IMG/VR virus record: IMGVR_UViG_3300008055_000147
Origin: a virus
DNA: 44,468 nucleotides
Strand: one strand, 5' to 3'
Both the position numbers and the translations under genes were made by a program. Positions 12,014 through 41,386 of this stretch are shown in pieces. Position 1 is the first letter of the stretch. Each line of letters opens with the position of its first letter. The notes under the pieces are model-generated. The model ran no database searches. It had not been told where the DNA came from and was given only the letters and a program-made list of their open reading frames with translations.

Positions 12014-12676
12014 ATGGGCCTACAGAACCAGTCAGCCACCCCAGGCAGGACCAACATCCTGGGGGCTGTCAACACCCTTTTGATGAACGTGGGCGAAATG
12101 CCCGTGGATTCGCTCAGCAACGTCCAGGTGCAGGACGCCAGGATTGCTGAAGCCACAATCCTGGAACTGCACAAGGAGGGGCAAACCAAGGGCTGGAGCT
12201 GGAACACCGAGCACGACTACCCCTTCCAGAAGGACACCGCCACCACCGAGATCGTGGTGCCAGCCAATGTGATGCGGTGGGTGCCAAACCCGTACAACTA
12301 CGCCAGGCGTTTTGAGCTGCGGGGGCAGAAGGTCTACGACCGTGACACCCGTTCCACCAAGTTTGACGACACCATCACCGAGATTCGGGCCGATGTGGTG
12401 TGGCTGCTGGATTGGGATTCCTGCCCTGAGCCCTACAACCGCTACGCGACCATGCGGGCCGCCAGGGTTTTTAGTGCCAGGACCCTGGGCAACGACTCCC
12501 TGGTGCGCTTTTCAGCAGCTGATGAGCAGGCAGCACTGACAGAGCTGCAGCGGATGGAGCTGGAAAACAACGAATACAACCTGCTGACTGGTGGTCGTGG
12601 CCTAAGCCCATTCCCGACTTACCAGCCTGGCTTTGGCCTGCTGCGGAACCTCCAGGGAGGCCGGGTCATTGGCTGA
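12014..12676 (+). CDS. tail tubular protein A (T7 gp11-like)
   Basis: LGAVNTLLMNVGEMPVDSL...GWSWN...VYDR... parallels T7 gp11 LSAVNDILASIGEPPVSTL...GWTFN...VYDR. Synteny fits. Confidence 0.85.
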   Translation: MGLQNQSATPGRTNILGAVNTLLMNVGEMPVDSLSNVQVQDARIAEATILELHKEGQTKGWSWNTEHDYPFQKDTATTEIVVPANVMRWVPNPYNYARRFELRGQKVYDRDTRSTKFDDTITEIRADVVWLLDWDSCPEPYNRYATMRAARVFSARTLGNDSLVRFSAADEQAALTELQRMELENNEYNLLTGGRGLSPFPTYQPGFGLLRNLQGGRVIG

Positions 12677-15437: not shown

Positions 15438-15889
15438 AGTGGGCAACGGCGACTGAGGAGCGAGTCACGCACATTGCTCAGCACCTCCGCAAAGAAGATC
15501 GGCGGGAGGTTCTGGCCAGCCATGGCCTGGCTGGCGAGCAGTGTGTGATGAACAGCTGGAGGGCCAGCGCAGTGGTGCGCTGCATCTGTTTAGACGACCA
15601 AACCCCAGTCGCTGTCTGCGGTGTGGTTGAGGCAGAGCACGGCGGGGTGATCTGGCTGCTGGGGACAGATCGCCTGTTTGAGACTGCTGCCGACACCCGC
15701 CAGTTCATCAGGGGTGGAAAGATCTGGGTGAATGGGCTAATAGATGACTGGGGGCAGCTCCATAATTGGGTCTACAACAAGAACCAGCGGTCCATGGTCT
15801 GGCTTCGCTCCCTTGGGTTCACCATTCATCCGGCATCACCCATGGGGCCTTTTGCTGAGTTGTTCTGCTACGTCGAGAGGAGGGCCTGA
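15434..15889 (+). CDS. internal virion protein A (T7 gp13-like, acetyltransferase-like fold)
   Basis: 151 aa between the gp12-like and gp14-like genes. The C-terminal NQRSMVWLRSLGFTI is GNAT-like. Called mainly by synteny. Confidence 0.55.
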   Translation: MKWATATEERVTHIAQHLRKEDRREVLASHGLAGEQCVMNSWRASAVVRCICLDDQTPVAVCGVVEAEHGGVIWLLGTDRLFETAADTRQFIRGGKIWVNGLIDDWGQLHNWVYNKNQRSMVWLRSLGFTIHPASPMGPFAELFCYVERRA

Positions 15890-16680
15890 TGATTATTGAC
15901 CCCGTATCAGCGGTAGTCGGTGGCGTATCAGCCATTGGCGGGATCTTCCAGTCCATTGCCGCCGACAAGGCAAAGAAGCAGGACTACCTGAATCAGAGCG
16001 CCTATGCCAGTGCAACTGGAGCTTTCAACCAGTGGCAGGCTGGGTTGAACCAGAGAATTAACACTCAAAACTCGCAATATCAATACTGGGGTGAGACGGT
16101 CCAATACAACCAGCAGCTGGCCTACACGGGGCAGCTCAGGAATTACGAGCTAGCCAAGGAGCTTGCCCAGGCCGACCGGGTTGGCCAGGCCCGTGCTGGT
16201 GCAGGCACCAACTACGCCATCAATGCCACCGTCACCGCCAACCAGCTGCAGGAGCGGGGGATGCAGGAGGCCGTAGCGATGCAGCAGTACGCCTACAGGG
16301 CGCTGCAGCAGTCGTCGGCCTACCAGGCAATGGCGCAGGAGGGCAGGACGGCTGATCGCTACATCGCCAACTTTGCCCGGCAAGCCGGTGACTACAACAC
16401 CTTGATGCAGATAAACCAGGGCCTGCAGGACCGGCAATACCGGAATGATCAGCTGGGGAACATCACCAAGTACCTGAACGAATACAACAGCCAGCAGTTC
16501 TACGAGCCCACGCAGTACGTCGATCCAGTGGCTCCATTCCCGCCGCTGCCTTCCTTGATGATGCCGCCCCCACCATCAATGAAGGGTGGAGCGCCAGCAA
16601 ACACCACTGGCCTTGGCATCGGCACCGCTCTGCTGGGCGGGGTGAACGCCTACATGACTACCAAAGCAGCCATCAAGTAA
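15889..16680 (+). CDS. internal virion protein B (T7 gp14-like)
   Basis: 263 aa with N- and C-terminal Gly/Ala-rich hydrophobic segments and a Q-rich middle. Called by synteny. Confidence 0.6.
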   Translation: MIIDPVSAVVGGVSAIGGIFQSIAADKAKKQDYLNQSAYASATGAFNQWQAGLNQRINTQNSQYQYWGETVQYNQQLAYTGQLRNYELAKELAQADRVGQARAGAGTNYAINATVTANQLQERGMQEAVAMQQYAYRALQQSSAYQAMAQEGRTADRYIANFARQAGDYNTLMQINQGLQDRQYRNDQLGNITKYLNEYNSQQFYEPTQYVDPVAPFPPLPSLMMPPPPSMKGGAPANTTGLGIGTALLGGVNAYMTTKAAIK

Positions 16681-16683
16681 GCC

Positions 16684-19062
16684 ATGTCACGCCCCCAGGA
16701 CCTCCCCGAAGGCCAGATCGCCCCAGCCGCCAGGGGCGTCGATGCCTTCTTGCGGCCTACCGACATTCAGGTAGCCGCCCCATCTCAGGCCCCTGCTTTT
16801 GGCAACCCGAAGGGGATGACGGCCCTGGCCGTATCTGGGACACCCAGCGTCCAGGGGTACAACAGCTCCGCTCAGTTGGCCGAGGCCCTGGGCCCTTTCA
16901 TGAAGGAACTGACCCAGACCACCCAAACCGTTGGTCTGGCCTACGCCGGGTGGCGGATAAACGAAGGCGAGGCTCAGGCGCAGGAAGCTGTCCGTCGGGC
17001 CCAGGCGGCCAACGACCAATCAACTGAAGCGGGTCAGCTTGAGTACGCCGCTGCCAACCGTGCGCTGGGGGTGAAGGACCCGCAGGCCGGCTGGGCCATG
17101 CACGTTCTTGACCCCTACACCCAGCTGGGCTGGGAGCGGGGCAAGTCCAAGGCTGCAGGGCAGGAGATTGAGGCGGGCATGGCTGGGTATGTCGCCAAGA
17201 ACTCAGGCCGCATTGACTACAAGGCCCCTGACCAGGGGTTTGGTGCGCTGCAAACCATCCGGTCTGAGTACATCACCCAAGTCACCGGCAAGTACGGGAT
17301 CAGCGATAGGAGCCACGGCTTTCAGAAGTACGCGGCGCCATCCATCGAGAAGGCCAGCGGGCGTGTAGCCCAGGCGATGGTGGAGGACCGGGCGAAGTTC
17401 TTTGACCAGAACAAGCCGCAGGAGCTGTCGATGCTGATCATCAACAGCCTGACGACCGCTAATTCAACCGGGACGATTGAGTACGGCGGCAAGACGTACA
17501 CCAAGGCAGAAGGGCCCCTGTTTGAGGTGGCGCTTGGGCTGAAGGTGAACGAAGAAGCCGAAGCCTTCTTGCGTCAGGCCGGCCTGCCTGGCCAGGCAAG
17601 CAAATGGAAGGAGGAGGCTTATGGAATCCTCAGGGCAACAGCTGACTACAACCAATCGCTTGGTATCAGCAATTATCTCGGGCGACTGATGACGGCTGAG
17701 CCGTTGCGGGGTGCAGACGGCAAGCCTGTTGTTGATGCCACTGGTAAACCGGTTTACCTGAGCTGGGAGCAGCTTTACAGCAAAACCAAGATCGACTCTC
17801 AAATCAAATACGAGCAGGCAGGTTTTGCCAACCGTGCCGCCAAGGCCAAGGATGTGGGCGAGCGGGCCGGCGCTGATATTGCGCAAGCCACGCAGGACAT
17901 GCTGCCTGGCCCTGCCAGGGCTGCGGCGGGCTTTGCGGCATTAGGCCAGTTCGTGGCTCAGGAAAATGCCATCCGCGAAAAGAGTGGGCAGCCACCCCTC
18001 AACAACTTGGAGCTTTACCAGATCAGGAAGTCATGGAAGGAAGCCAACGAGCTGAACTCCGACTTGGTATTTGAGAAGGACGACCCCAGAGTTGAGGTGA
18101 CCTACCTGGGGCAGCTGGCCACCTTGCAGGGCAGCGCCTTCAATGCCGCTGGGGAGCGGAGCAGGGCGCGGGCTTTGGCGGCCACCATCCGAGACCCGGC
18201 CAAGGCAAGTCAGTTCCTGACCAAGGCACTGAACGAGATCGAGCAGAAAGAGAAGGAGGTGCAGGACTTCAGCGCCTACTCAGGACCGCGAGACAAGGTG
18301 ATCGTGGACAACATCAAGTCCAGGATCGAGCGCAATTACGACGCCAGGGCTGACTACACCAAGCCTGACCGAGTTGAGTCTGAGCGCCGTCAGCGGAGTG
18401 CCTACACCGCCCTTGTGAATGACCGCATCAAGGCAAGGGAGGCCCAGCTCCAGCGGAAGCTGAGTGAAAGCGAGGTCAGGTCCATAACTCAAACAGCCAT
18501 TGACGAATACGGAGGCAAGGACAAGGACGCACTGCCGTACCTGTTCCCAGGGAGCGTGGCCTATCCCGGCTCACCATCAGTGGACCCAGCCACCACGATG
18601 AAATCGGTGCCCCTGGGGCCTGACGGCAAGCCAAAGCCAAATGGCGGCAAGCCTGTCCCGCCTGTTTATGAGATCAACCAGCTGGACGACATCCCCAACC
18701 GCAGGCAGGAGTTGGTGCAGTACCAAGCCAAGCCGGTGCTGTCGTTGAACGCAGTGCGTCAGTCCTTCTTTGCTGTGATGCAGGGCAAGCGGCTATCCCC
18801 TGCCATTGAGCGGGCATGGCGTGATGCCCAGGCACCCAATCCATTCGTCTTTCTGCAGCGTCAGCTGGAGATGTACCCCAACTACAAGGGCGGGGAATGG
18901 ACGCCAGCTGAGATGAAGAAGGCCAAGGAGAGGCTGACTTCACAGGCAGCCCTTGAGGGCAACAGCGTCTCCAAGGCAGCAATGGCCCCATCAATGCCAC
19001 TGCTGGCATCCCTGGGCAACTGGGCAGGCAACACGCTTCTGGGCATCACGCCAGCCTCTTAG
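16684..19062 (+). CDS. internal virion/core protein C (T7 gp15-like)
   Basis: 792 aa. Size and position match gp15 (747 aa in T7). Confidence 0.6.
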   Translation: MSRPQDLPEGQIAPAARGVDAFLRPTDIQVAAPSQAPAFGNPKGMTALAVSGTPSVQGYNSSAQLAEALGPFMKELTQTTQTVGLAYAGWRINEGEAQAQEAVRRAQAANDQSTEAGQLEYAAANRALGVKDPQAGWAMHVLDPYTQLGWERGKSKAAGQEIEAGMAGYVAKNSGRIDYKAPDQGFGALQTIRSEYITQVTGKYGISDRSHGFQKYAAPSIEKASGRVAQAMVEDRAKFFDQNKPQELSMLIINSLTTANSTGTIEYGGKTYTKAEGPLFEVALGLKVNEEAEAFLRQAGLPGQASKWKEEAYGILRATADYNQSLGISNYLGRLMTAEPLRGADGKPVVDATGKPVYLSWEQLYSKTKIDSQIKYEQAGFANRAAKAKDVGERAGADIAQATQDMLPGPARAAAGFAALGQFVAQENAIREKSGQPPLNNLELYQIRKSWKEANELNSDLVFEKDDPRVEVTYLGQLATLQGSAFNAAGERSRARALAATIRDPAKASQFLTKALNEIEQKEKEVQDFSAYSGPRDKVIVDNIKSRIERNYDARADYTKPDRVESERRQRSAYTALVNDRIKAREAQLQRKLSESEVRSITQTAIDEYGGKDKDALPYLFPGSVAYPGSPSVDPATTMKSVPLGPDGKPKPNGGKPVPPVYEINQLDDIPNRRQELVQYQAKPVLSLNAVRQSFFAVMQGKRLSPAIERAWRDAQAPNPFVFLQRQLEMYPNYKGGEWTPAEMKKAKERLTSQAALEGNSVSKAAMAPSMPLLASLGNWAGNTLLGITPAS

Positions 19063-19162: not shown

Positions 19163-22100
19163 ATGCCAACTCCCAGGGGCTTAGCCAATGACGAGAACGC
19201 TGTAGCGGTTGGGGAGGGAGGCGCCAAGGCAAAGCCCAAGCCCAAGCCAGCGAAGCCTCCAGTCCGGCCCTGGTACTGGTATCTCACCCCTGCAGGCATT
19301 GCAAACGAAGCGCGGGTTCGGGCTAAGCAGATCCAGAGGATCAACCAGGGCCACACCTTCACAGGCCATCGCTTCGACCCCAAATACGGGGTCATGATTC
19401 CAGGCCAATGGGTAGGCCCGAATGGGCAAAAATCGGGCCTTTCCCCTGTCGAGCGGGACATCGTTTACGGGGCTGTAGTCAAACCCGTCAAGACGGTGGC
19501 CAATTTGGCAACCAATGCTGTCCAACGTGTCACCAATGGGTGGAAGCCGGCAGACCCTGCATCGACTCCTGTTGGCCGCTTCATCAACCAGGCAGACCGC
19601 CAGATCAAGGGCGGCATGTTGATCAAGCAAGACGAGCAACGCAGACCAGAGGATCTGTTCTGGCAGCAGATGGGCGAGATGGCCTCCACCAGCGTTGTTG
19701 GTGGTGTGGCTGCCCATGGGCTTGTACCTGCAGCGGCATTTACGACAGGTGCCTTCAAGGCATTGGCCCCTACCGCTCAGCAGGCATTGCGGTGGACCGC
19801 TGGTGTCGGCACTGAGTCCGTTATCTCAACGGCACTGACCGACAACCGGCAGGGCAACGTGGCCAATGCCTTTGGGGAGAACGCCCCAATGGCGATCAAG
19901 CCAGAGGACGACATGGTGTCGGCACTGGGCAAGTCGCTCATCCCCAATGCCGGTGCGGAGATCAGCCTGGGGTTGGGCTTCCTTGGCCTTGGGAAAGCCG
20001 TTGGCAGGGGCCTGGAGGGCTTTGACAATGTGCGTCGCCGCCAGGCGGAAGGCCGTGCTGCGCAGGAGACCACTGACGCCCGCAATTTCACCAAGGAGAC
20101 TGGTCTTCAGAACGAGGCCGATGGCGAGCACGGCTTCACGGAGCAGGCCACACAGCCAGCGCCTGCAGCTGCGCCTGAGGCAGCCGCTGCTCCAGAAGCA
20201 GCCCCTGTTGCCCCACCGACCAAGCAGCAGGCAGAGGATTCCCTCCTGGGCCCAAAGGAGCAGCCAGCAGAAGCTGCAGCACCTATTGAGGAGCCTGAAT
20301 ACAGCCCTGAGTTGCCTGAGGTGGATACAGCCGTCATGGCTGCAGGCCGCCTGGACGATGACCAGCTGATTGCAACAGCCCAGGGCACTGGCCCTGTCTT
20401 GCCTGAACTGGAGCGCCAGCTGACAGAACAGAGGGCTGGCTTCCAGCCCCAGGAGGGTTTGACCCCAGATGTGGTGGCGGCACCAACCGAGAACTTGGCT
20501 ACGCCAACGGTGCCCTACGAGGACCAGTGGTCGCAGCTACCAAACCAGACGTTGTTTTCGCTGGCTTCTCCTGCGAATAACCCTGAGCTATTCGACATCG
20601 TTAGCAAGATGACGGGTCGCAGCTACGACGAGTTCACCTGGACTGATGTGGTGGATGGACTGAGTGCCCTGAAGGACAAGGGATTAACGGTCATCCCCAG
20701 CCGGGTGATTAACAGCTCTGGCATGAGGCTGACATCAGACCTATCGGTTAATGCACCGCTTTTCCAATACAAGGACGGTGTAAACGCCCAGGGCCAGCAG
20801 AAAGGCAACTCCCTTGAGGGGGTGACCAAATGGAACCCTGATGTCGAGCAGACAAATCTGGTGTGGGACAACCCCGCCGATGGCAAGACCTACATGATCA
20901 ATGGCCACAACTCCCTAGCCAAGGCAAAGGAGCTTGGTATCCCGACGATCCCAACAAAAACGATCTTCGCCAATACGCCAGGGGAGGCCCGGCTTATTGG
21001 AGCCAAGGCCAACATTGCCTCTGGCGGTGGCACTGCATTTGATGCAGCCAAGATCATCCGTGAGCTGGGCATTACGGATGCAGCTGGCCTTGAGGCTGCT
21101 GGCATCCCTTTGGACTCTGGCCTAGGCACCTCTGGCCTGGCATTAAGCAAGCTGCCCGACGACCTGTTCCAGCAGGCAATCAACGGTGAGCTGCCGATGG
21201 GCCGTGCCATGGCCCTGGGGGGCAGTGGTCTCGATCCAGCGGACATGATCCGGGTTGCCGGGTTAGGTGGCAAAAAGGAAATCAGCGAGCGTGGTTTTGC
21301 TGAGCTGGTGCAGATGGCATCTTCTGCCCCGAAGGTGGCTGATGCCGCCCAGGGCGGTATCCCTGGCATGGACGAATGGCTCAAGGATTCATCGGTAATT
21401 GAGAAGGCTGAACTGTCAGCCAAAGTCCGCGCTGAGCTGATCAGCAACAAGAACCTGTTTGGCAAGGTCGGCAAGAGCAAAGCCGCCCAGGCCCTGGCCG
21501 ACAAAGGCGGCACCCAGGTGAACCAGGGGCAGGTACTGAACGCTGCTGATGTGGCCCGTGGGGTGCTCGATGAGTTCGACCGGGACAAGTACCTAGCCAA
21601 CACACCGATCAGTGAGCTGCTGAATCAGGGGGCATCCGACATCGCCGCCGGGGCAAAGCCTGCTGTGATCGCCAAGCGCATCCTGCAGCAGCTGGAGATG
21701 GCAGCCGAGGCAGCACCCCCTGCGGTGAAGGCGGAACCCTCCATCGACTCCGTTGGCCCTGCCCGCTGGGATTCATGGCCGCCCGAGAAGCAGCAGCAGA
21801 AGGCCGTTGAAGCCCAGGGGCTTGTGCTGTCTGACCGGGTGCTGGCCAGCCGCCAGAAGTACCAGGCCGACTATGAGGCCAACCAGGCGGCAGTGCTTCG
21901 ATACAACGACGAGATGCCTGGCTCAAATAGCCCTAGCGAGCTGACCGAGGAGCAGTTCATCGCCAAGTACGGGGCTGATGAGAGCACCCATCCGCAGTTA
22001 ATGAACAAGGGCGGGGCAACACCCAAGCAGCTCAAGGACCTGGAGAACCACAACTGGGCGCAGGAGTACCTGGCCTGGTACGGGCAGAAGACCGCTAACT

Positions 22101-24730
22101 CGCCACTGACCCCTGAGATGCGCAAGCAGCTCAAGGCCCAGGTGGTCAAACGTGCCATTGAAAACGGCGAGGTGCGGCCATCTGCCACACCACTGCCTGA
22201 CCTACCTGAACCACCGAAGGACCTGAACGACCCTGCGGCATTGATTGCGGACGAGGCCCGCCTGGCGCAGGAGTACGGGACGCAGGACGTTATTGCCGGT
22301 CAGCTGGCACTGGACGCCAAGCGGCAGGCCATGGGCTGGAGCGATATGTCCCTGGAGCAGAAGAAAGCCAGCGGGATGCTCGATGAATGGCAGCGCCCCC
22401 AGGAGCCCGTTGGCGACAGCCTGGAGGACCGTGCCGCCTACGCCAGGGAACAGCGGATGGCAGCTGAGGCAGCTGGTGACACCACCCTGGCCAGGGAATG
22501 GCAAAACGCTGAAAGGCAGCTGGAGAAGGACCGCATTTCTCAAGCCCAACAACGCCAGGCCACCAGCCAGCCAGACATGTTTGGCGTTGGTGCATACGAC
22601 AACAGCACCCCGCTGCTAAATAATCCCCCGCCTGCCCCTGAGCCAGGGGTAAAGCGTTTCTTCCATGGAGCTGCTGGGGAGTTCAAGTTGGTGGAGGGCG
22701 GTGAGTTTGAGAGCGGCGAAATGAATATCTACGGGCAGGGCCTGTACTCAACAGACAGCCTCAACACCGCAGGTAAATACCAGAAGAAGAACAAGGCCAA
22801 GGGTGCCCAGGCCAATGGGGTCACCTACGAGGTGGTGGAGAAGAAGCCGGTCAAGTTCTTCGACCTAGACGCACCAGCAACACCAGACGTTCTCAACAAG
22901 CTGCGAGATGTGGCTGGCTACGACTCCATGACGGAGTTGGTGGAGACCGCTATCAGCGAGCTGGATGGCACCCCATCGCTAACCCAGGTCTTCGATGAGA
23001 TGCGGGCTTGGTCCCGTGAGCTGGAAGTCCCAGCCCATGAGATCCAATCAACCTGGCATGAGCTGTCCCTGGCGCTGGAGAAGGACGGCTATGGCGGCTT
23101 CACCCATCAGGGTGGTCACCTTGCTGGCCGTGGCAAGGAGCTTCATCAAGTCCGCATCTACTGGGACCCGGCCAACAGCGTTGACATCTACAAGGTGGAT
23201 GCCGATGGCAACCGAGTGGCCGTACAGACCAGGGAAGCAAAGGCTCCTGCTGGCGAAGTCGCTCAAACGATGACTGCCTTGACCAAGGGGATGCTCGAAG
23301 GGCCGCGCCGCCAAATGTTTGAGGCGTACCAAGCCAACAAGGTCAAGCTGTCTGGCGTTGACGAGCCCTACCTCAACGCTTTGCAGCAGTTGAAGGCGAA
23401 AGGCATTACGGCCAATACGCAAGAAGAGTTCAACGCCTTGCTGGACCGAGTTATCGCGGAGCGAGATCGGAGACAGGCCCCAGCCGCCCCTGCCATCGAG
23501 ATCCCTGAAGCTGCTGGCGCCAAGATCACGGCCAAAACCGACCAAAGCCGAATCCTGGGCGCCGCTGAATCGCTGTTCAACTGGGTCAACAGTGGGGTCC
23601 CCGGCGAGAGGCAGGCAATCACGTCAGTTGAGCAGGCGCTGGCACTGGTGCGGGCCAAGGGGTCACGGCTTGACCCAGACAAGGTTCCTGGCCTGGACAT
23701 GGATGAGGCCAGAAATGACAAGGCGATGGGTAGATCCACGCCTAATACGGAAGCCGTTGCTCAGGCTTACAAGCAGTTCTACGGAGTCAAGCCCGACGCC
23801 CTGTCGCCCCTATCTGACATGGACGAGGAGGCCGCGCTCCTGGGCCTAAGGGCCGGGCCGCTGCCATTCATGGATATGCCCACCAGTGAGGCAGCCAAGA
23901 CCAGGCAACTGCTGGAGGGTGCCTTGACTGATGCAGTCAGGCGAATTACGGGCAAGGAGGACGTTGCCTTCCATGGCTACACCGATCGGGTGATTAGCCC
24001 TTCCGAGCACGGCGGAGATGGTGTCCGCACTGGTACTCGGAAAGGCTTCTACGACCCCATGACCGACATGGTGAATGTGATGGGGTTGATGGATAGGAGC
24101 CCCGGCGAAATCGTGGAGACCGCCATTCATGAGTCCTGGCACCGAATCCAATACACCCTCCTGACCTTGAAGGACATGGAGATATTCGATTCGGTCTTTG
24201 GGAAGATCCGGGTGAATGACCTGGCCTCAATGCGTTCTGCCAATGGCAAGGCAACGCTTGAGAAGCAGGCATACGCCGCCCAGGTGGTTGCCGCCTACAA
24301 GGCGCAAGGTCTTGACGCATCCATGGAGGGTGTCCGCGTTGGCTTGGTTGAGGCCATGGACGATCAATTCCCCCTTAAGGACGGCAGATCCTGGGGGAAC
24401 ACCCTCAGGGGTGAAGTGGGAATCCGCGTCATTCAGGGCATTTACAAGGTGATGGACCTAATCGAGCGGGTGAATAACGGCATCCGTGGCCGTGGGTTTG
24501 AAACTGTCCAGAGCATGTTTGAGAAGGCTTACTCCGGGGAGCTGGCCAAGACCAGGGCCTGGGATTCCGTAGCCCAGCTGACCACCCCTGATCAAAAGGC
24601 AAGGCTGGCCAAACTTGAAGAGTGGAGGAAGGACAACAAGAAGGGCATCTCTGAGATCAGTCAGATGGTCGCCAGCATTGATGAACAGATCAATGCACTC
24701 AAATCCCAAGCAATGAAAGGAGGCTGCTGA
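19163..24730 (+). CDS. giant polyvalent virion protein (ParB-like, ART-like and HExxH zincin-like regions)
   Basis: 1855 aa. Residues 515-640: VWDNPADGKTYMINGHNSLAKAKELGIPTIP (ParB/Srx-like). Residues 1163-1345: RFFHGA...GQGLYST...GYGGFTHQGG...KELHQVRIYWDP (ADP-ribosyltransferase-like). Residues 1656-1660: HESWH (nt 24128-24142). The N-terminus is Gly/Ala-rich and hydrophobic. Confidence 0.65.
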   Translation: MPTPRGLANDENAVAVGEGGAKAKPKPKPAKPPVRPWYWYLTPAGIANEARVRAKQIQRINQGHTFTGHRFDPKYGVMIPGQWVGPNGQKSGLSPVERDIVYGAVVKPVKTVANLATNAVQRVTNGWKPADPASTPVGRFINQADRQIKGGMLIKQDEQRRPEDLFWQQMGEMASTSVVGGVAAHGLVPAAAFTTGAFKALAPTAQQALRWTAGVGTESVISTALTDNRQGNVANAFGENAPMAIKPEDDMVSALGKSLIPNAGAEISLGLGFLGLGKAVGRGLEGFDNVRRRQAEGRAAQETTDARNFTKETGLQNEADGEHGFTEQATQPAPAAAPEAAAAPEAAPVAPPTKQQAEDSLLGPKEQPAEAAAPIEEPEYSPELPEVDTAVMAAGRLDDDQLIATAQGTGPVLPELERQLTEQRAGFQPQEGLTPDVVAAPTENLATPTVPYEDQWSQLPNQTLFSLASPANNPELFDIVSKMTGRSYDEFTWTDVVDGLSALKDKGLTVIPSRVINSSGMRLTSDLSVNAPLFQYKDGVNAQGQQKGNSLEGVTKWNPDVEQTNLVWDNPADGKTYMINGHNSLAKAKELGIPTIPTKTIFANTPGEARLIGAKANIASGGGTAFDAAKIIRELGITDAAGLEAAGIPLDSGLGTSGLALSKLPDDLFQQAINGELPMGRAMALGGSGLDPADMIRVAGLGGKKEISERGFAELVQMASSAPKVADAAQGGIPGMDEWLKDSSVIEKAELSAKVRAELISNKNLFGKVGKSKAAQALADKGGTQVNQGQVLNAADVARGVLDEFDRDKYLANTPISELLNQGASDIAAGAKPAVIAKRILQQLEMAAEAAPPAVKAEPSIDSVGPARWDSWPPEKQQQKAVEAQGLVLSDRVLASRQKYQADYEANQAAVLRYNDEMPGSNSPSELTEEQFIAKYGADESTHPQLMNKGGATPKQLKDLENHNWAQEYLAWYGQKTANSPLTPEMRKQLKAQVVKRAIENGEVRPSATPLPDLPEPPKDLNDPAALIADEARLAQEYGTQDVIAGQLALDAKRQAMGWSDMSLEQKKASGMLDEWQRPQEPVGDSLEDRAAYAREQRMAAEAAGDTTLAREWQNAERQLEKDRISQAQQRQATSQPDMFGVGAYDNSTPLLNNPPPAPEPGVKRFFHGAAGEFKLVEGGEFESGEMNIYGQGLYSTDSLNTAGKYQKKNKAKGAQANGVTYEVVEKKPVKFFDLDAPATPDVLNKLRDVAGYDSMTELVETAISELDGTPSLTQVFDEMRAWSRELEVPAHEIQSTWHELSLALEKDGYGGFTHQGGHLAGRGKELHQVRIYWDPANSVDIYKVDADGNRVAVQTREAKAPAGEVAQTMTALTKGMLEGPRRQMFEAYQANKVKLSGVDEPYLNALQQLKAKGITANTQEEFNALLDRVIAERDRRQAPAAPAIEIPEAAGAKITAKTDQSRILGAAESLFNWVNSGVPGERQAITSVEQALALVRAKGSRLDPDKVPGLDMDEARNDKAMGRSTPNTEAVAQAYKQFYGVKPDALSPLSDMDEEAALLGLRAGPLPFMDMPTSEAAKTRQLLEGALTDAVRRITGKEDVAFHGYTDRVISPSEHGGDGVRTGTRKGFYDPMTDMVNVMGLMDRSPGEIVETAIHESWHRIQYTLLTLKDMEIFDSVFGKIRVNDLASMRSANGKATLEKQAYAAQVVAAYKAQGLDASMEGVRVGLVEAMDDQFPLKDGRSWGNTLRGEVGIRVIQGIYKVMDLIERVNNGIRGRGFETVQSMFEKAYSGELAKTRAWDSVAQLTTPDQKARLAKLEEWRKDNKKGISEISQMVASIDEQINALKSQAMKGGC

Positions 24731-24732: not shown

Positions 24733-27700
24733 ATGACCAACTGCGATGACCTGTTCCAACAGATCCAGGACCTTCAGGCCAAGAAGAAAGGACTGTCTGA
24801 TGCGCTGACCCCGCTGATGCAGGCAGATGAGCCACCAGACCCAGCCCGCGTCTTTGTCTTTCGGGATAAGAACGGCCAGCAGATCGAGGCGGATTTTGAT
24901 GATGTCTGGAAGCAGATCAGCCGTGATCCCCTAGCCACCCAACAGTGGGCTGAGCTTGCTGCTGGCAGGGGTGACCTACCTGATGGTGCCAATGGTGAGT
25001 TTGAAAACCTGCGGCAGATGGTGAGCCGCATGGGAATGACCAATGCCACCGACCTGGCGGCATTTATGCAGAAACTGACTGGTGACTGGGCTGAGGTGAA
25101 CACCCCAGACTTTGTTGCTGTCACCGCCATCAACAACAAGGAGGTGTTCCTCGATCAGCTGCAGGGTGCCTTCAGCGAGGCCCGTGTAGCGATTGGCAAG
25201 GACAAGATCAGCCAGCTGGTGGCCACCAACGTGGCGCCATTCCTCAACATCCTGCAACGACAGAGCAAGTTGCGGGTAGCTGGTGCCCTCACCCGTCAGA
25301 CGTTGCACGACTCAATTGACCTGCTGAAGCAGCAGATCGCCGCAACTGGCGTTAGGCCCACCCGTGAGGCCAAGGCTCAGTTCTTGGATGCCTATGCCAA
25401 GGCGATCTTTGCCCACCGCTCTGAGCGGATTGCGTCCCGTCGGTCTGGCCAGTTGCTGCAGAACTACCAGCGCATGGTCGCGGAGGACAACGGAGTACCT
25501 GGCTCCCTGTGGCAGGACACCGCTGATGAAGCCAGGGCTGCGGCTGATGCATTGGCTGAGGAGACCATTGCCATGACCCCAGACGAAATGGTGAAGGAAG
25601 GCAGCATCCCCCGGCAGGTGGTGGAAGCAGCCGACAAGGGTGAGGCAGGCATCAAGGACCTGGAGGAGATCCAGCTGACGTTCAAGATTGAAGGGGTGGA
25701 CCCCACCACCAATGATCTGGACAAGGGCTGGGAAAACATCTGGAGGCGTTCAGCCCGTGCTGGCTACAAGGATTCGATCCTGTTTAACCCCCGCACCCAG
25801 CTGGTGATGAACTACCTAAGCCAGAAGGTTGTCTTCCTGGCCGAGGGAGCCAGAAAGGTTGCAGGGGAGAACGCCTGGAAGTTGTATGAGGGCCGTGCCC
25901 GTGGAGCACAGCTGGACGCCCTGGGCGGTGACCCTGTTGCGCTGAAGACAGCAAGGAAACAGCCGATCTACGTCAACCCCCTGGCTACTGGCTTCTTCCG
26001 TGATGCCCTTAAGGATCAGCTGGATGGTGCGCGTATTGCTGGTGAAGCCGGCCTGCGGGCTGAGGCAATCATCAAGCAGTCCTGGGGCGAATCCCTTAAG
26101 CGCAGCTTCATGGGCGACGAAGCACCTTTCGCAGGCAACGTCGATAACTTTGCGGCCAAGGGTCAGATGGACCTGGACACGCAATACAGGGCAGCGCAGG
26201 AAGTATTGGATGAACCATGGGACCCCAAGCGATTCCATTTCCAGCTGCGGGACAAAATCCACATCGGCTTGAAGGTGTTTGCTAACAGCAAGATCGAGAA
26301 GGCAACTGGCCAAAGGCTGCCGGTCTATTCAGCTCTGCAGATGATGACGGCAGTGGACCAGCGGGCTGGCCTACGCAACTTCATGACGGATCGGGCTAAT
26401 GACCTGATGCTTGAGCAGGCCAGCCTCAACCCTGGCGGCACCCTCAAGGAGTGGGGAGACGCAGCCGACAAAGCCCTCCAGGACCAGCTGTATCAGGCCA
26501 CCCCGTCTGAGCAGAACATCAAAGATGCCAGGACACAGTTCAGCCTTTCGGAGGAGGACTTGAGCGACGACGAGGTGGCTGCCTACCTGGCGGCAGAGAA
26601 GATCGGGCTGCCGGTGCTGGCCACTCCAGATCAGGTCAAGTCAAAAGACTTGTCAATTGCTATGCGGATGCAGAAGCAGCAGACAGAAGGCGTTACGGGT
26701 GCCATCAGCAAGTTTGCAGATCAGGCCAGGGCCAATGAGTGGGTGGACTCCCAGCTGCCCTTCTGGCGGTCTCCCTACAACCAGCTGGTGTGGGATGTCT
26801 CCATGGCCAATCCATTCACCCCGATCAGCAAGGTTGCTCAGGTGGCATGGAACCTGCCCCAAGGCAAGGTGACTCCCAAGCTGCTGGCTGAAGCCCAGGC
26901 CAGCACCATCATCTGGCTGTCAATTGCAGGGGCGGCCTACACCATGCGCGAAAACGGCTTGATCGTTGGCAATGGCCCGGTTGACCCCAATGCCCGTAGG
27001 CAATGGATGACTGGGCTGAATACACAGGGGAAGGTGCCCAACAGCATCCTTGGCATCCCTTTCAACATGGGCGGGATACCAGTGCTCAACAGCATCTTCA
27101 TGTTGGTTGATGCCATGGATGTCATTGACCAGGGCAACGTCAGCGAATACGACCGGATGAACGCCTGGCAGGGCATGGCCCAGGTCGGGGCTGGAACCAT
27201 CATGCGGATGCCTGGCTTCCGTCAGGTGCAGATGATTTATGACGCCTTCTCCAATGGCAATGAGAACGCCATTCGGAAACTGTCTGGCTGGTTCCTCAAT
27301 GGTCAGGCCAACCCAACATCAGGTGTTGAGCGATTTGCTGAATGGGCTTCCGGCACTGCTACCAGCAACCTGCAGCGCCCCCGTGGGTTTACGGGCGGCG
27401 ATGAGCGGTGGGACCTGAGCCAGCTGCCAGCTGATCACCCCCTGCGCGGCGCTTACTACGGGATGCAGAAGTGGATCTATGAATCCAACCCAGGCGTAGC
27501 CCATTGGACTGGTGTACCGATCAAGGAGGCCACATGGCTGGGGCGTGAGATACGTCGCCCTTCAGGGATCTTCCGTGGCGAATGGCCCATTGGCGTCCCT
27601 GGCATCTGGGAGTTCAACAAAGGTGACCACAAGACTGAGACCAAGCTGGAGCAGCTGGGCCTGCTGGACCCACCCAAGGCGTTGATGACTGGCCAGCTCG

Positions 27701-28215
27701 ACGGAGTGCCCATGCTTCCCGATGCCGAGCAGGAGTTCAACAGCTACCTGGGTACGGTCAAGCCAACAAGCACCTACTCCCGCGATCCGCTTGGCGGGTA
27801 TGTGGTTTGGTCAGGCGAGGAAGCTGAGAGAAAGGGCCCTGGTGGACGCCCAAGCGGCACGGTGCAGGAGAGGGTCGATCTAACCAGGCTGGTGGATCAG
27901 GCCGTCCAGGGCCGCACTGTGCGCGAGGCGCTCCAGTTTGTGTTCGACAGCCCCCAATGGCGGAAGTGGGATTCCAACCCAACCTTTACCACTGACACAA
28001 GGGTGAATGATCGCCCCAAGGACATCATCCAAAGACAGCCTGGACCCACCGTGACGCGGAAGATCAAGGAGTTCTACGCACAGCTTGCCCAGCGACAGAT
28101 GGAAGAGAGCAACAGCCCTGCAGCACAACAATGGAGGGATGACAGGGCCATCCTGGAGCGCGACCCAGCCACTGTTAGGCCAGCACAGCAGTGGCTGCAA
28201 GAGACCATGCGGTAG
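24733..28215 (+). CDS. internal virion/core protein D (T7 gp16-like by position)
   Basis: 1160 aa, the last large gene before the fibre. No lytic transglycosylase motif recognised. Confidence 0.55.
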   Translation: MTNCDDLFQQIQDLQAKKKGLSDALTPLMQADEPPDPARVFVFRDKNGQQIEADFDDVWKQISRDPLATQQWAELAAGRGDLPDGANGEFENLRQMVSRMGMTNATDLAAFMQKLTGDWAEVNTPDFVAVTAINNKEVFLDQLQGAFSEARVAIGKDKISQLVATNVAPFLNILQRQSKLRVAGALTRQTLHDSIDLLKQQIAATGVRPTREAKAQFLDAYAKAIFAHRSERIASRRSGQLLQNYQRMVAEDNGVPGSLWQDTADEARAAADALAEETIAMTPDEMVKEGSIPRQVVEAADKGEAGIKDLEEIQLTFKIEGVDPTTNDLDKGWENIWRRSARAGYKDSILFNPRTQLVMNYLSQKVVFLAEGARKVAGENAWKLYEGRARGAQLDALGGDPVALKTARKQPIYVNPLATGFFRDALKDQLDGARIAGEAGLRAEAIIKQSWGESLKRSFMGDEAPFAGNVDNFAAKGQMDLDTQYRAAQEVLDEPWDPKRFHFQLRDKIHIGLKVFANSKIEKATGQRLPVYSALQMMTAVDQRAGLRNFMTDRANDLMLEQASLNPGGTLKEWGDAADKALQDQLYQATPSEQNIKDARTQFSLSEEDLSDDEVAAYLAAEKIGLPVLATPDQVKSKDLSIAMRMQKQQTEGVTGAISKFADQARANEWVDSQLPFWRSPYNQLVWDVSMANPFTPISKVAQVAWNLPQGKVTPKLLAEAQASTIIWLSIAGAAYTMRENGLIVGNGPVDPNARRQWMTGLNTQGKVPNSILGIPFNMGGIPVLNSIFMLVDAMDVIDQGNVSEYDRMNAWQGMAQVGAGTIMRMPGFRQVQMIYDAFSNGNENAIRKLSGWFLNGQANPTSGVERFAEWASGTATSNLQRPRGFTGGDERWDLSQLPADHPLRGAYYGMQKWIYESNPGVAHWTGVPIKEATWLGREIRRPSGIFRGEWPIGVPGIWEFNKGDHKTETKLEQLGLLDPPKALMTGQLDGVPMLPDAEQEFNSYLGTVKPTSTYSRDPLGGYVVWSGEEAERKGPGGRPSGTVQERVDLTRLVDQAVQGRTVREALQFVFDSPQWRKWDSNPTFTTDTRVNDRPKDIIQRQPGPTVTRKIKEFYAQLAQRQMEESNSPAAQQWRDDRAILERDPATVRPAQQWLQETMR

Positions 28216-28266: not shown

Positions 28267-31122
28267 ATGACCGTCCCCATCCCATATAGCTACCGCCAGT
28301 ACGCAGGGAATGGCACAGCCAAGGACTTTGCTGTCCCATTCCCTTACTTGGAAAGGGCTCAAGTCCGCGTCTATATCAATTTGGTCATTGAGACTGGCGT
28401 CTACACCACCTTGCTGGCTGAGGGGACTGGCTACAGCTGGACAAGCAACACCCAGATCCAGGCCGTCACAGCCCCCGCCACCGGCCAGGTCCTAACAGTT
28501 CGGAGGGAAACGCCCAACGGCGAACAGCTGGTTGTGTGGCAAGACGGCTCCAACCTGATCTCAGCAGACCTCAACACCTCAGACCTCCAGAACCTGTACG
28601 TCGTCCAGGAGTGGATTGATTACGCAACCCGGTCCAACGAGGTTAGCCAAGAGGCAATCGCCTCAGCCAGGGCAGCACTGCCCAAGGCTGGCGGCACCAT
28701 GACAGGCCCGATTGTCCTGAGTGGCAATCCAACCGCACCGCTTCAAGCAACACCCAAGCAATACATCGACGCCGCTGATGCGGTGCTCCAAGCGGACGTC
28801 AATACCAAGTGGAACAAGTTCTCCGACACGATTGACAGCACCGAAGCCTGGCTGAGCCAAGACGACAAGGTCTCAACCATCAAGGCATCTGACTTCCAAT
28901 TCACCACGCTGGTCCAGACCGCAACGCCAGCCGGGACAAGCTGGCCGGTGGGCAAGACCTGGCTGCAGAACGACGTCAACAAGACCCTGTCGATCTGGAA
29001 CGGATCCACATGGGTCGGCCTGGCATCAGGTGGCACGTTCACGACGCAGCCCACGACCATTTACGTCGATTCGATCAACGGCAATGACAGCTTTGATGGT
29101 CACCGGATCATCAATCCGATGAAGACCATCAAGGCAGCTGTCGCATCTGCATCAGCTGGTTGGATCATCAAGGTGGTGCCTGGCGTTTACCAGGAAATCT
29201 TGCCCATCGACATCACCGTCGCCAACTTGTCCATTGTTGGCGAGGCCCAGCGGTCGTGCTTTGTTCACCCGACAGTCGCCACGCAGGAACAGATCATGTT
29301 CCGCTGCAACAGCGGCACCTACATCGACGGATTTACGTTTGTGGGCCTCAAGGCCTCTGGGTCCCGTGGTGGCAACGCTGTTGACACCAATGCCACCTAT
29401 GGCTTGCCCACTTCCCAGGGCTGGGTCGCAGGGTTCTACCCCGGTTGCAACATCAAAAAAAGCCCGTACATCAACAACTGCACCAACTTTGCCGACAGCG
29501 GCATCAACAACGCTGCGTTTGACCCCAACAACTACGCAGGTACTGGCGGCGACCTGACCTCTGCCCCAACCGGTGGCGGCATCATTGTCGATGGCTCTGT
29601 CCCAAGCGTCAGCAGTCCCCTGCGTAGCTTCGTTATTAACGAGTTCACCCAGGTGTGCCTGGATGGGCCAGGCCTGCTGGTGTGCAACAACGGTTACGCC
29701 CAGGCCGTCAGCTTCTTTGGCCTGTTTTGTCACTACCACGCCAAGGCGTTGTCTGGCGGCCAGATCAACATGGAGGTCGGCACCACCAACTTTGGTCGCT
29801 ACGGCCTGATTGCTGACGGCAAAAGCTCCGCTGCCATCTTCACGGCCACAGCCAACGGAGCGGCTTCTGCTGGCGCCACAACATTTGCCATTAACGCTCC
29901 GACGGCTGGTGGTTCCTGGTTCGGTGCTGCAACCCGTCCAGCCATCAACATGCTGGTTCAGATTGGCTCCGACATCTACCCAATCCTTAGCGCCACAGCC
30001 AACGGAGGTGGGTGGAACGTTGTCATCAGTCGCCCGGACCCAAATGACCTTTCTGTCAACCTTGGCTTGCTTAACAACCATGCCAACGCAGCGACAGTCA
30101 GCTTCTTCCTGCGGTCAATGGTCAGCACTGCGTCCCACACGATGGAGTACGCAGGCTCTGGCACCAATTACAACGCGCTCCCGGAAAACGGTGGGGTGCC
30201 CATTGAAGCCAACGAATCCATCAACTTGAACAATGGCCGGGTTTGGCTAACCAGCACCGACCAAAACGGTAAGTTCAAAGTTGGCGACACCTTCCAGGTA
30301 AATCAACAGACCGGCGTCGTAACCATTCCTCCTGCTGCAGCTAGCGGTGTCCAGAAAACAGGGGCCACTGGTTCTGCCGTTATTCCAGCGGGCTCAACGG
30401 CTCAACGTGACGCCAGTCCCAACGCTGGTTACTTCCGCTTCAACGTCACCACCACAAAGTTCGAGGGCTACAGCGGCGCTGCCTGGGGCCCGCTTGGGGG
30501 TGCTGCTGCGGGGGTTTCGGGCTCCATCCAGGTCAACAACGGTTCTAATGAACTTGGCTTCATTGCCAACCTCAAGTGGGATGCGACTAACACCGAGCTA
30601 GATGTCCCTGGCAGCATCAACCTTGACGACGGGGGGACATTCACCACAACCCTCCAGACCATCACACCAACGGCTGCGCGGACGATCAGCCTGCCGGATG
30701 CCACTGGAACCGTTGCACTCGTAGCGGGCAGCTCTGGGGCCATTCTCTACAACAACGCTGGGGCACTGGCGGGTGGACCGCTTTACGACAGCACCAGGCT
30801 CACGCTTGGCTACGCCATCGGTGGAACGGTCACCCAGGCAACCAACAAAGCCACAGGCGTCACTTTGAACGGTGCGTCTGGTCGCATCACAATGAACGGG
30901 GCATCACTTGCTCTCGACACCACCGTTACCTTTACACTTACCAATAGTTCAATTACCGCCAATGATTTGCTGATCTTGAATCACGTCAGTGGTGGCACAG
31001 CAGGCTCGTACCTGCTCAATGCCCAAGCCGCTGCTGGATCAGCCACCATCAATGTTCGCAACATTACAGCGGGCATTTTGAGTGAAGCCATTGTCATTGG
31101 TTTCGCTGTTATTAAAGCCTAA
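28267..31122 (+). CDS. tail fibre/tailspike (gp17-like N-terminus plus right-handed beta-helix domain)
   Basis: N-terminus YSYRQYAGNGTAKDFAVPFPYLERAQVRVYIN is typical of the T7 gp17 adaptor domain. TIYVDSINGNDSFDGHRIINPMKTIKAAVASASAGWIIKVVPGVY is typical of the start of a pectate-lyase-like beta-helix. Confidence 0.85.
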   Translation: MTVPIPYSYRQYAGNGTAKDFAVPFPYLERAQVRVYINLVIETGVYTTLLAEGTGYSWTSNTQIQAVTAPATGQVLTVRRETPNGEQLVVWQDGSNLISADLNTSDLQNLYVVQEWIDYATRSNEVSQEAIASARAALPKAGGTMTGPIVLSGNPTAPLQATPKQYIDAADAVLQADVNTKWNKFSDTIDSTEAWLSQDDKVSTIKASDFQFTTLVQTATPAGTSWPVGKTWLQNDVNKTLSIWNGSTWVGLASGGTFTTQPTTIYVDSINGNDSFDGHRIINPMKTIKAAVASASAGWIIKVVPGVYQEILPIDITVANLSIVGEAQRSCFVHPTVATQEQIMFRCNSGTYIDGFTFVGLKASGSRGGNAVDTNATYGLPTSQGWVAGFYPGCNIKKSPYINNCTNFADSGINNAAFDPNNYAGTGGDLTSAPTGGGIIVDGSVPSVSSPLRSFVINEFTQVCLDGPGLLVCNNGYAQAVSFFGLFCHYHAKALSGGQINMEVGTTNFGRYGLIADGKSSAAIFTATANGAASAGATTFAINAPTAGGSWFGAATRPAINMLVQIGSDIYPILSATANGGGWNVVISRPDPNDLSVNLGLLNNHANAATVSFFLRSMVSTASHTMEYAGSGTNYNALPENGGVPIEANESINLNNGRVWLTSTDQNGKFKVGDTFQVNQQTGVVTIPPAAASGVQKTGATGSAVIPAGSTAQRDASPNAGYFRFNVTTTKFEGYSGAAWGPLGGAAAGVSGSIQVNNGSNELGFIANLKWDATNTELDVPGSINLDDGGTFTTTLQTITPTAARTISLPDATGTVALVAGSSGAILYNNAGALAGGPLYDSTRLTLGYAIGGTVTQATNKATGVTLNGASGRITMNGASLALDTTVTFTLTNSSITANDLLILNHVSGGTAGSYLLNAQAAAGSATINVRNITAGILSEAIVIGFAVIKA

Positions 31123-41217: not shown

Positions 41218-41303
41218 CTCCTTGAGTCGTCGCTGCTGGGTCAGGTGGGCCTGGCGGGAGCGGGCCTCGGCTTTCAGCTGGCTTGCAATCTGGCGGGCTT
41301 CAA

Positions 41304-41313
41304 GGTCGTGGGT
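41304..41313 (-). promoter_or_regulatory. ACCCACGACC box upstream of the RNAP ATG
   Basis: Exact 10-mer within the open frame upstream of the ATG at 41217. Confidence 0.5.
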
Positions 41314-41350
41314 AACTTGCAATTGCAAATCCTTTGCTTGCAATAGGCAA

Positions 41351-41376: not shown

Positions 41377-41386
41377 AGGTGCAAGC

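Follow-up and report, generated by a model that had tools for sequence, protein, structure and literature searches.

A polyvalent-type protein as the apparent front half of a split giant core protein in a T7-like podovirus genome

In T7, gp16, a protein of 1318 amino acids (aa) with an N-terminal lytic transglycosylase (LT) and a long body, is encoded by the largest of the core genes, the last one ahead of the fibre gene. In the cyanophage A4 (A-4L), four proteins, gp29, gp28, gp27 and gp26, are packaged as a pentameric pre-ejectosome, the outer layer of which is formed by gp27 and gp26 (Hou et al., PNAS 2025, PMC12002296; PDB 9k3a). The C-terminal helix of gp27 inserts into gp26, where a Cys1715-Cys5 disulfide is seen by cryo-electron microscopy (cryo-EM), and each virion holds five gp27 subunits; gp27 has been demonstrated in the virion, though not its ejection (PMC12002296). 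The gp28 protein has LT and M23 domains. Polyvalent proteins predicted to be injected are already known, as are ejection proteins with enzymatic domains, and a disulfide-bearing four-protein pre-ejectosome with a giant member is known from A4 alone. The survey by Iyer, Burroughs, Anand, de Souza and Aravind (J Bacteriol 2017, PMC5512222) discusses MPTase domains by which polyvalent proteins process themselves inside the head or earlier, as in P1 DdrB. The subject of this work is a 44,468-nucleotide (nt) stretch of viral DNA, IMG/VR record IMGVR_UViG_3300008055_000147 (the window), and in particular its 1855-aa open reading frame (ORF) X and the 1160-aa ORF D that follows it. Comparison with relatives indicates that X and D are the two halves of one giant protein of the gp16 slot, and that X is a polyvalent-type protein whose last residue is probably bonded to the start of D in the virion.

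The window looks like a complete T7-like podovirus genome of about 44 kb. Between its gp13-like gene and its fibre gene lie four ORFs of 263, 792, 1855 and 1160 aa. The sequence-only reading, an earlier model-made annotation of this DNA, had placed X between the 792-aa and 1160-aa genes, and X is found exactly as described, together with the three motif regions it had picked out (NGHNS, FFHGAAG/YGQGLYS/LHQVRIYW and HESWH). The core genes and the parts of X are as follows.

15889-16680, + strand: 263-aa gp14-like inner core protein, 0 Cys (BLAST match to an L007 gene with Pfam T7_gp14, E 8e-7)
16684-19062, + strand: 792-aa protein of the gp15 (A4 gp28) slot, 0 Cys, assigned by position alone
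19163-24730, + strand: ORF X, 1855 aa, ATG start, polyvalent-type, putative N-terminal half of a giant internal (ejection) protein split in two, with homologues in the same slot
19163-20662, + strand: N-terminal region of X, aa 1-500 (aa 1-850 aligns in nearly all family members)
20675-21712, + strand: candidate ParB/sulfiredoxin (Srx) N-domain and ParB-type helix-turn-helix (HTH)-like part with a conserved helical extension, aa 505-850 (phrog_21, weak ParB profile matches)
22103-22642, + strand: middle module, aa 981-1160, common in homologues by BLAST map, no Pfam match
22649-23197, + strand: predicted ADP-ribosyltransferase (ART)-fold cassette, aa 1163-1345 (alignment, weak Pfam matches, AlphaFold2 (AF2) model, Foldseek)
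23480-23797, + strand: small mobile module, aa 1440-1545, which shifts position among relatives, no Pfam match
23795-24727, + strand: zincin-like module, aa 1545-1855 (alignment invariants, AF2 model, Foldseek)
24641-24727, + strand: C-terminal long helix of X, aa 1827-1852, the chain ending ...KGGC (AF2 model, Cys counts)
24719-24723, + strand: GGAGG Shine-Dalgarno-like site for D, within the last Gly codons of X (AAA GGA GGC TGC TGA)
24733-28215, + strand: ORF D, 1160 aa, putative rear half of the split giant (D-family profile compared with fused giants)

The relation between X and D becomes apparent in relatives with three core genes. In locus L007 and in Prochlorococcus phage P-SCSP1, the gp16 slot is filled by a single giant of 2027 and 2563 aa, respectively, which contains no Cys, is directly followed by the fibre gene and carries the ParB module of X in colinear position. 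The P-SCSP1 giant also has the X-type zincin module (HESFHRIQ) and a helix resembling the C-terminal helix of X, past which the polypeptide runs on for about 1200 aa; no X-type ART cassette was detected in the fused giants by BLAST. A plain hmmsearch of the D profile against these giants gave sub-threshold colinear matches only, so that a profile-profile comparison with controls was needed. By hhalign, the D family aligned with the C-terminal ~1100 aa of seven giants at a probability of 97% (P 1.1e-10, score 101), with D 633-957 as the core of the alignment, against scores of 17-31 (P 0.03-0.7) for the controls, in which the gp15-slot profile, a template read in reverse or one of three block-shuffled templates was used. 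Because D matches the C-terminus of the giants, and because their fronts carry the ParB module of X (and in P-SCSP1 the zincin also), X and D are, by profile comparison, one gp16-slot giant split into two genes. The proposal of the sequence-only reading that X is an extra protein inserted between gp15 and gp16 gives way to this relation (97%, P 1e-10, clean controls), and its labels ‘gp15-like’ and ‘gp16-like’ for the neighbouring genes hold for position only, since neither profiles nor PDB sequences gave a match to T7 gp15 or gp16. Against the PDB, the D-family profile had no match and the gp15-slot family a single irrelevant weak one (E 0.56). Term searches of the P-SCSP1u cryo-EM paper turned up no account of the core proteins.

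At the split point, and in split forms only, sits a pair of cysteines. The sole Cys of X is its last residue, Cys1855 (codon 24725-24727), and the sole Cys of D is Cys4 (codon 24742-24744), invariant across the D family. Neither the 263-aa nor the 792-aa protein contains any, while Cys makes up 0.5-3% of most other phage proteins checked. Among 77 X-family proteins, 73 end in Cys, each without any other Cys, even where the preceding module differs. The four-gene order is shared by 10 loci, comprising the window, Nohivirus, seven more metagenomic loci and the cultured Synechococcus phage S-SRP02 (the window, L001, L004-L006, L009, which is S-SRP02, and L010-L013). In all 10, the only Cys of X is the last residue and D has a Cys at position 3-5, which is the only one of D except in L006 (a second at 1076), and the gp14- and gp15-slot proteins of the split loci have no Cys wherever readable. 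The arrangement, thought unusual when first noticed, thus recurs in 10 loci and in A4, where the 1717-aa gp27 is the structural precedent (PMC12002296). The freshwater cyanophage paper (PMC8557907) does not mention S-SRP02. In A-4L, the core genes encode gp29 (380 aa), gp28 (1058 aa), gp27 (1717 aa) and gp26 (1114 aa), are syntenic with the window, and contain a single Cys in gp27 (residue 1715) and a single Cys in gp26 (residue 5). Cys1855 of X is therefore probably the disulfide partner of D Cys4, by analogy with A4, and the X and D products are probably re-joined in the virion by this one conserved bond. As a separate observation, the gp14-like proteins that accompany fused, Cys-free giants (L002 5176-5829 and L007 6497-7261) start with Met-Cys (Cys2); those of split-type phages have no Cys.

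The two genes are also closely joined at the DNA level. The stop codon of X occupies 24728-24730 and the ATG of D follows 2 nt later, at 24733; this spacing, together with a ribosome-binding site for D inside the end of X, suggests that X and D are translationally coupled.

At E<=1e-25, 65 homologues of X were detected, the majority at E=0, and its relatives number at least 73 overall; among them are same-slot genes in Nohivirus S31C1 (1484 aa, named in UniProt as an LPD-containing protein) and in several metagenomic contigs of 25-48 kb. With so many homologues, mostly at E=0, X is clearly to be regarded as a real, conserved gene and not as a chance ORF. By BLAST module map, its architecture is a mosaic across homologues: aa 850-980 is variable, the ART candidate (aa 1160-1350) is present in only some members, and aa ~1545-1855 is common among members. 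The N-terminal region contains weakly hydrophobic Gly/Ala-rich stretches (aa 178-196 and 259-277), followed by an acidic Pro/Ala/Glu-rich linker (aa 300-480). Of the Gly/Ala-rich, hydrophobic N-terminus originally described, these two stretches remain, the enrichment being modest (27% Gly/Ala in aa 100-300 vs 19-25% elsewhere). Since N-terminal residues 114-154 of A4 gp27 plug into the inner layers, aa 1-500 of X probably docks X into the core. The X-equivalent of S-SRP02 (p046, 1016 aa) matches X 985-1073 and retains the Cys pair and parts of the scaffold, with all three enzyme motifs missing, and the enzyme modules can accordingly be viewed as accessory cassettes on a conserved ejection-protein frame. 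It is largely shown that this frame consists of the N-terminal ~850 aa, the middle module and the C-terminal anchor helix, with optional cassettes between them. Many relatives (P0036, P0046, P0050-P0053, P0058 and P0061) contain, after the middle module, a recurrent ~80-aa module (F-x-LP-x-L-x3-APRYG ... DLDRAAY ... HG-x-V) that X lacks and that Pfam does not match; it seems to be a further cassette of this family. Searches of whole X against Pfam, PHROG and PDB sequences returned nothing except phrog_21. Pfam matched nothing on aa 1-500, 846-1165 and 1346-1550 or on the inserts from relatives, word-index searches module by module added only fragments, and the profile of a large 22-sequence alignment had no PDB match.

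The putative ParB/Srx+HTH-like module is the most widespread part of X. Residues 526-784 match phrog_21 at E 2.7e-30, and the ‘portal protein’ label of that profile is uninformative for X, as the match falls on profile positions 1025-1284 of 1362. Neither ParB_N nor ddrB-ParB of Pfam matched X or 15 relatives, and HTH_ParB gave weak matches below its cut-off (E 0.025-0.11, X and relatives). A profile of 15 sequences over aa 505-850 aligned colinearly but weakly with ParB structures in the PDB, including Myxococcus ParB-family proteins (E 0.006), Bacillus subtilis Spo0J (E 0.053; profile residues 74-216 to 55-197) and Caulobacter ParB (E 0.34), with EspB matching at similar E, and hhalign of the region against Pfam-annotated ParB was weak (P 0.002, probability 14%). 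The family consensus consists of DPxRFQYK, ~35 aa, YVVNGH(H/N)RLxxAKxLG and then the HTH-type LALSxLPxxLFxxVxxGxLP, signatures which in our own reading may be equated with the ParB boxes. Thus the ParB/Srx signature noticed at first in NGHNS (aa 580-584, nt 20900-20914) does lie in a ParB/HTH-like module, one in which the box Arg has been lost and which the Pfam ParB models do not recognise. In a search of 1.84 billion representatives, the module matched 4078 proteins (2342 at E<1e-30), which vary in length from 430 to 3619 aa and in where the module is placed. In 22 such proteins the partner domains were LPD38 (7), GGDEF (4), Zeta toxin, ART-PolyVal, tape-measure and SLT, and further RadC, LPD1, MuF, PBECR1 and VanY. 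At E<1e-100 the module is shared with proteins bearing LPD38, LPD1, ART-PolyVal, MuF, RadC, PBECR1, SLT and Zeta toxin, and the partners largely correspond to the polyvalent-protein repertoire of the survey (PMC5512222). We conclude from these similarities that aa 505-850 is a ParB/Srx+HTH-like module of the kind that is a hallmark of polyvalent proteins, one with formal ParB matches in part only. The most distant relative that carries the module is a 2393-aa bacterial protein with RadC and LPD23 domains on a contig of the delta proteobacterium NaphS2 (L008 10001-17182); its neighbours are resolvase, D5-type primase and Mu-type transposase genes, which mark it as a polyvalent protein of a non-phage mobile element.

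In the ART cassette, X reads FFHGAAG from aa 1166, YGQGLYS from aa 1190 and LHQVRIYW from aa 1327. The elements conserved in an 8-sequence alignment are FFHG (H1168), YGxGLYxTD (Y1195), GYGGFTHxGG and LH-Q-VRIYW (Q1329), and both H1168 and Y1195 are kept in every aligned member having that part of the module. Weak Pfam matches all fall in the ADP-ribosyl clan (DUF3990 in 5/8 members, ART-PolyVal at E 0.07, PARP at E 0.18), and the gathering score of neither PARP nor ART-PolyVal was reached on the X-type module. The AF2 model (pLDDT 79, pTM 0.74) places H1168 in strand 1 (E17-21), Y1195 in strand 2 (E45-48) and Q1329 in strand 5 of an ART fold interrupted by a four-helix insert (~70 aa). In Foldseek searches against the PDB, its top match was 9k3a chain B, that is A4 gp27 (E 3e-5, TMq 0.58), and RES NAD+-targeting toxins (Xre-RES, MbcT) matched at a probability of 0.97-0.99 (E 0.007-0.02). 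RES toxins degrade NAD+. An assignment of 9k3a chain B to A4 gp28 was ruled out, the chain being gp27. The model supports an ART split beta-sheet fold for aa 1163-1345, with the triad H-Y-Q. The ART claim of the sequence-only reading accordingly survives in its fold and in its conserved His and Tyr, the histidine being H1168 and not H1167, but its H-Y-E triad does not, as E1326 is T or R in relatives. An H-Y-[EDQ] ART clade has reportedly been described by Aravind and colleagues, and a Gln at strand 5 may be compatible with ART activity. In the polyvalent survey, ART-PolyVal is an H-Y-D family (PMC5512222).

Relatives of X show that this slot can be filled differently. Family members P0027, P0032 and P0059 carry a PARP-type H-Y-E domain (LFHGT...GEGVYFAS...LETVIY) above the Pfam threshold, which in P0027 and P0032 sits in the slot of the X-type ART module of P0025. 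Because hhalign of the X-type ART profile with the PARP-type cassette was not significant (probability 0.7%), their equivalence rests on the slot and on motif-by-motif resemblance. Residues ~1425-1460 of A4 gp27 read LYHGT...GSGTYFSKS, an ART-like His and Tyr signature, and this protein (L003 20116-25269) looks as if it contains an unannotated ART-like domain at aa ~1420-1610. The main text of the A4 paper makes no mention of ADP-ribosyl, NAD or ‘polyvalent’ (PMC12002296).

In the zincin-like module, HESWH (HExxH; aa 1656-1660, nt 24128-24142) is followed by E1700 (nt 24260-24262), and H1656, E1657, H1660, R1661 and E1700 are invariant in 17/17 diverse members with identity down to 27%. In the AF2 model (pLDDT 81), one helix and a sheet of five strands precede the HExxH helix (103-121), after which comes the helix with the Glu (154-170); we read this topology as the zincin layout, with HExxH on a helix and a third zinc-ligand position downstream. 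No Pfam peptidase family, including MPTase-PolyVal, matched in the 17 members even at E<=10, and the module profile had no match among PDB sequences. The top Foldseek matches in the PDB are all zincin-type (PprI/IrrE, PrpR, anthrax lethal factor; E 0.23-1, probability <=0.41). In BFVD, the Nohivirus homologue is followed by crAss-like and other phage proteins (E 1e-3 to 2e-2). An IrrE-like protein (probability 0.96) and a mycobacteriophage metalloprotease (0.82) match more weakly, as do several ‘large polyvalent protein associated domain’ proteins and one protein annotated as a zincin protease fusion (E 0.09). With moderate confidence, aa 1545-1855 is best read as a gluzincin-type peptidase. 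The zincin motif first proposed therefore stands, together with an invariant E1700. As X combines three distinct enzyme-like folds, each with some independent support, with a late-gene context and domain links to the polyvalent network, its initial description as a multi-domain polyvalent-type protein in a T7-like internal-core block is borne out.

The gene anatomy, the domain similarities, the split/fusion relation and the conservation of the Cys pair are shown here; packaging, disulfide formation in this phage, ejection, release by reduction, enzymatic activity and a role in counter-defence are inferred. The reading that we prefer, at a probability of roughly 0.6, is that X is the enzyme-bearing N-terminal half of a split giant that is packaged with D, tethered to it by a disulfide, ejected, released and active through its ParB-HTH, ART and zincin modules. 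X, D and the 263-aa and 792-aa proteins would assemble on the portal as a four-protein pre-ejectosome, as in A4. The C-terminal helix of X would dock into D, and a Cys1855-Cys4 disulfide would re-join the halves at the split point. Upon infection, the complex would be ejected ahead of, or with, the DNA. In the cytoplasm, reduction of the disulfide, cleavage of the chain by the zincin, or both, would then free a few copies of X per cell. The freed X might bind the incoming DNA through its ParB/HTH-like DNA- or nucleoside triphosphate-binding module and modify host targets before phage gene expression.

Several points weigh against this reading. Neither BLAST nor hhalign found any likeness in sequence between X, D or the 792-aa protein and A4 gp27, gp26 or gp28, so that the A4 analogy is built on synteny, protein size, the Cys pair and a single domain matched by Foldseek; nor is similarity of the three to T7 gp15 or gp16 detectable. 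Taken by sequence, the domain assignments of X are weak: none of the Pfam models passes its threshold on X, the PDB fold matches of the zincin module are below significance (E>=0.23), and the ParB-box Arg, present as GHNR or GHHR in most relatives, is replaced by Ser584 in this phage (GHNS). The strand-5 residue of the ART cassette, Q1329, is an atypical catalytic residue in place of the acidic (E/D) one of ARTs; it is Gln in X and most relatives and Glu in P0024 only. Finally, the terminal Gly-Gly codons of X form the GGAGG of D, and part of the C-terminal conservation thus has a translational cause, which explains the conserved glycines in part and leaves the conserved Cys unexplained.

These points bear on several other explanations. 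X could be chiefly structural in the pre-ejectosome or ejectosome, its ParB, ART and zincin regions being inactivated relics, or folds re-used purely as building blocks or as surfaces that touch DNA, with no host enzymology. Such relics would account for a Gln, not Glu/Asp, at ART strand 5, for the Arg-to-Ser change in the ParB box and for the lack of any Pfam match above threshold on X. The ART-matching domain of A4 gp27 moreover lies within the modelled pre-ejectosome, where the gp26/gp27 layer touches the DNA ring, and the X-equivalent of S-SRP02 carries no enzyme motifs, so the family can do without them. A purely structural role is nevertheless unlikely, since the HExxH motif and its downstream Glu are invariant in 17/17 members at identities as low as 27%, and the ART His and Tyr persist in every aligned member with that part. 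The PARP-type H-Y-E cassette in the same slot of relatives points the same way, as cassette swapping is effector-like and not scaffold-like, and Gln at strand 5 may itself suit activity if X belongs to the H-Y-[EDQ] clade mentioned above. The domains could also be active but serve the virion, the zincin processing core proteins or X itself as the head matures, the ParB/HTH part anchoring the genome end and the ART-like part binding a nucleotide cofactor. An HTH-type ‘LSxLPxxLFxxAxxGxLP’ signature in the ParB-like module would fit a hold on DNA, as would the double-stranded DNA ring in the A4 gp26/gp27 cleft, proposed to be the first-packaged genome end (PMC12002296), and auto-processing MPTase domains such as that of P1 DdrB provide a parallel in the survey (PMC5512222). 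However, ART and PARP cassettes vary between close relatives, a poor fit to a conserved assembly role, and the ParB-like module is spread over thousands of proteins, with partners of the toxin type (Zeta toxin, PBECR1, GGDEF). We hold virion service to be rather less probable again than a structural role, and a virion role and a host role are not mutually exclusive.

The idea that gp14, gp15 and gp16 of the T7 type are all present (263, 792 and 1160 aa), with X an independent fourth gene inserted between gp15 and gp16, draws on the presence of four ORFs where T7 has three, on the roughly gp16-like size of D and on the fact that the modules of X are common to polyvalent proteins of unrelated elements. 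It fits badly with relatives that hold the ParB module and the D-like region in one polypeptide (in P-SCSP1 with the zincin too), with a Cys pair located at the junction and missing from fused forms, and with the lack of detectable similarity of D to T7 gp16, and we consider it very improbable. A more specific version of the preferred reading, in which X is the enzyme-bearing half of a split giant, is put forward tentatively and is somewhat doubtful: the protein would be a redox-latched split ejection protein, in which a dedicated disulfide staple, stable in the virion, opens in the reducing cytoplasm, perhaps aided by the zincin, and frees the swappable-effector half before transcription. It would hold for a wide range of T7-like phages from the sea and from fresh water, many of which are probably cyanophages. 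The effectors may comprise ParB-HTH modules, ARTs of the H-Y-Q or PARP type and others, and their targets may be host DNA, NAD+ or proteins.

The core block lies in a T7-like late module with the following further genes.

4145-5908, + strand: terminase
7740-9365, + strand: portal
10843-11916, + strand: Gp10A-like capsid protein
12014-12676, + strand: tube
12633-15437, + strand: nozzle
15434-15889, + strand: gp13-like gene, weak gp13 match
28267-31122, + strand: T7-type tail fibre

The gene for the large terminase precedes that for the portal, as it does in A-4L, whereas in T7 it is at the end of the late operon. The 263-aa gp14-like protein has a hydrophobic N-terminus. No recognisable domain, and no recognisable peptidoglycan hydrolase, was found in the 792-aa protein by Pfam, PHROG and PDB searches or with the gp15-slot family profile; among its slot relatives, an SLT transglycosylase is present in L011 (1-2748) and an amidase annotation in S-SRP02 (L009 10904-13810). 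The minus-strand arm encodes a T7-type RNA polymerase, a primase-helicase, an exonuclease, an integrase and ArdA. The 194-aa ArdA antirestriction ORF (1432-2016, - strand; Pfam E 1e-22) indicates that the phage also has a conventional, expressed anti-restriction gene, and the single-subunit RNA polymerase (38905-41388, - strand) adjoins a tyrosine integrase (41546-42547, - strand), as would be expected of a potentially temperate T7-like phage. In the early region, a 244-aa ORF (43504-44238, - strand) matches papain-fold cysteine proteases (Peptidase_C39-like/AvrRpt2-type). A tRNA scan of the window found no tRNA genes. One relative of the C-terminal module of X is labelled as coming from a metagenome-assembled genome of Vulcanococcus, a picocyanobacterium, the closest cultured relative of D infects Synechococcus, and the window has a G+C content of 59%; on these grounds a picocyanobacterial host is plausible.

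We did not find, in the literature examined, that the protein in the A4-gp27 position of RNA-polymerase-encoding T7-like phages is a polyvalent protein and half of a split gp16-slot giant, nor the lineage-wide junction Cys pair, the swapping of H-Y-Q and PARP-type ARTs or the ART-like domain in A4 gp27. These relations link the computational literature on polyvalent proteins to the structural work on the podovirus pre-ejectosome and give one polyvalent family a likely virion address. The disulfide seen once by cryo-EM in A4 appears to be conserved across the lineage at a point of gene split or fusion, and offers a testable mechanism to hold and release pre-packaged effectors. Should the cassettes prove active, they would be candidate factors in the immediate-early takeover of the host, or in counter-defence, by cyanophages of ecological importance, and if the bond does act as a latch, the T7-type ejectosome itself would embody a polyvalent strategy, with a simple chemical switch for release. 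Tractable systems exist in S-SRP02 and A4, both in culture, and in P-SCSP1, which represents the fused form; for A4, CRISPR/Cas-based genome editing is established (PMC12002296).

In comparison with known systems, the fused giants of P-SCSP1 and L007 run in the same colinear order as X and D, from a ParB-like module to a D-like part that makes up the C-terminal ~1100 aa, with the zincin between them in P-SCSP1, but in one polypeptide and with no Cys. T7 gp16 resembles the split giant in its place ahead of the fibre gene and in an enzymatic N-terminal part with a long body behind it. X and D had no PDB, Pfam or PHROG match to gp16, and Pfam found no transglycosylase in X; T7 gp16 bears the hydrolase, whereas in relatives a peptidoglycan hydrolase sits in the gp15-slot protein. 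RES and PARP-like ARTs have the ART-fold core in common with X, which differs from RES (R-E-S) and PARP (H-Y-E) in its H-Y-Q signature and ~70-aa helical insert. With the polyvalent proteins of the survey (PMC5512222), X shares ParB-like, ART and zincin parts in one large late-gene polypeptide predicted to be packaged and injected. Its ART is not H-Y-D, its zincin has no match to MPTase-PolyVal and its ParB-like part none to ddrB-ParB. Unlike the polyvalent proteins described there, X appears to sit in a T7-type core by means of an anchor helix and a Cys, as half of a gp16-slot giant, and term searches of the survey found no T7-type core or split-giant context. A4 belongs to the Saffermanviridae, its record has no annotated RNA polymerase, and gp27 has neither HExxH nor GH[HN][RS] by motif search; the window phage has a T7-type RNA polymerase and an integrase. 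The two phages are alike in the order of a small protein, one of ~800-1000 aa, one of ~1700-1850 aa and one of ~1100-1160 aa before the fibre, and in a giant with a single Cys at or near its C-terminus next to a protein with a single Cys at residue 4-5. They are further alike in the long C-terminal helix predicted on X and present on gp27, and in the match of the ART model of X to a domain of gp27, which carries HG and GxGxYFS motifs.

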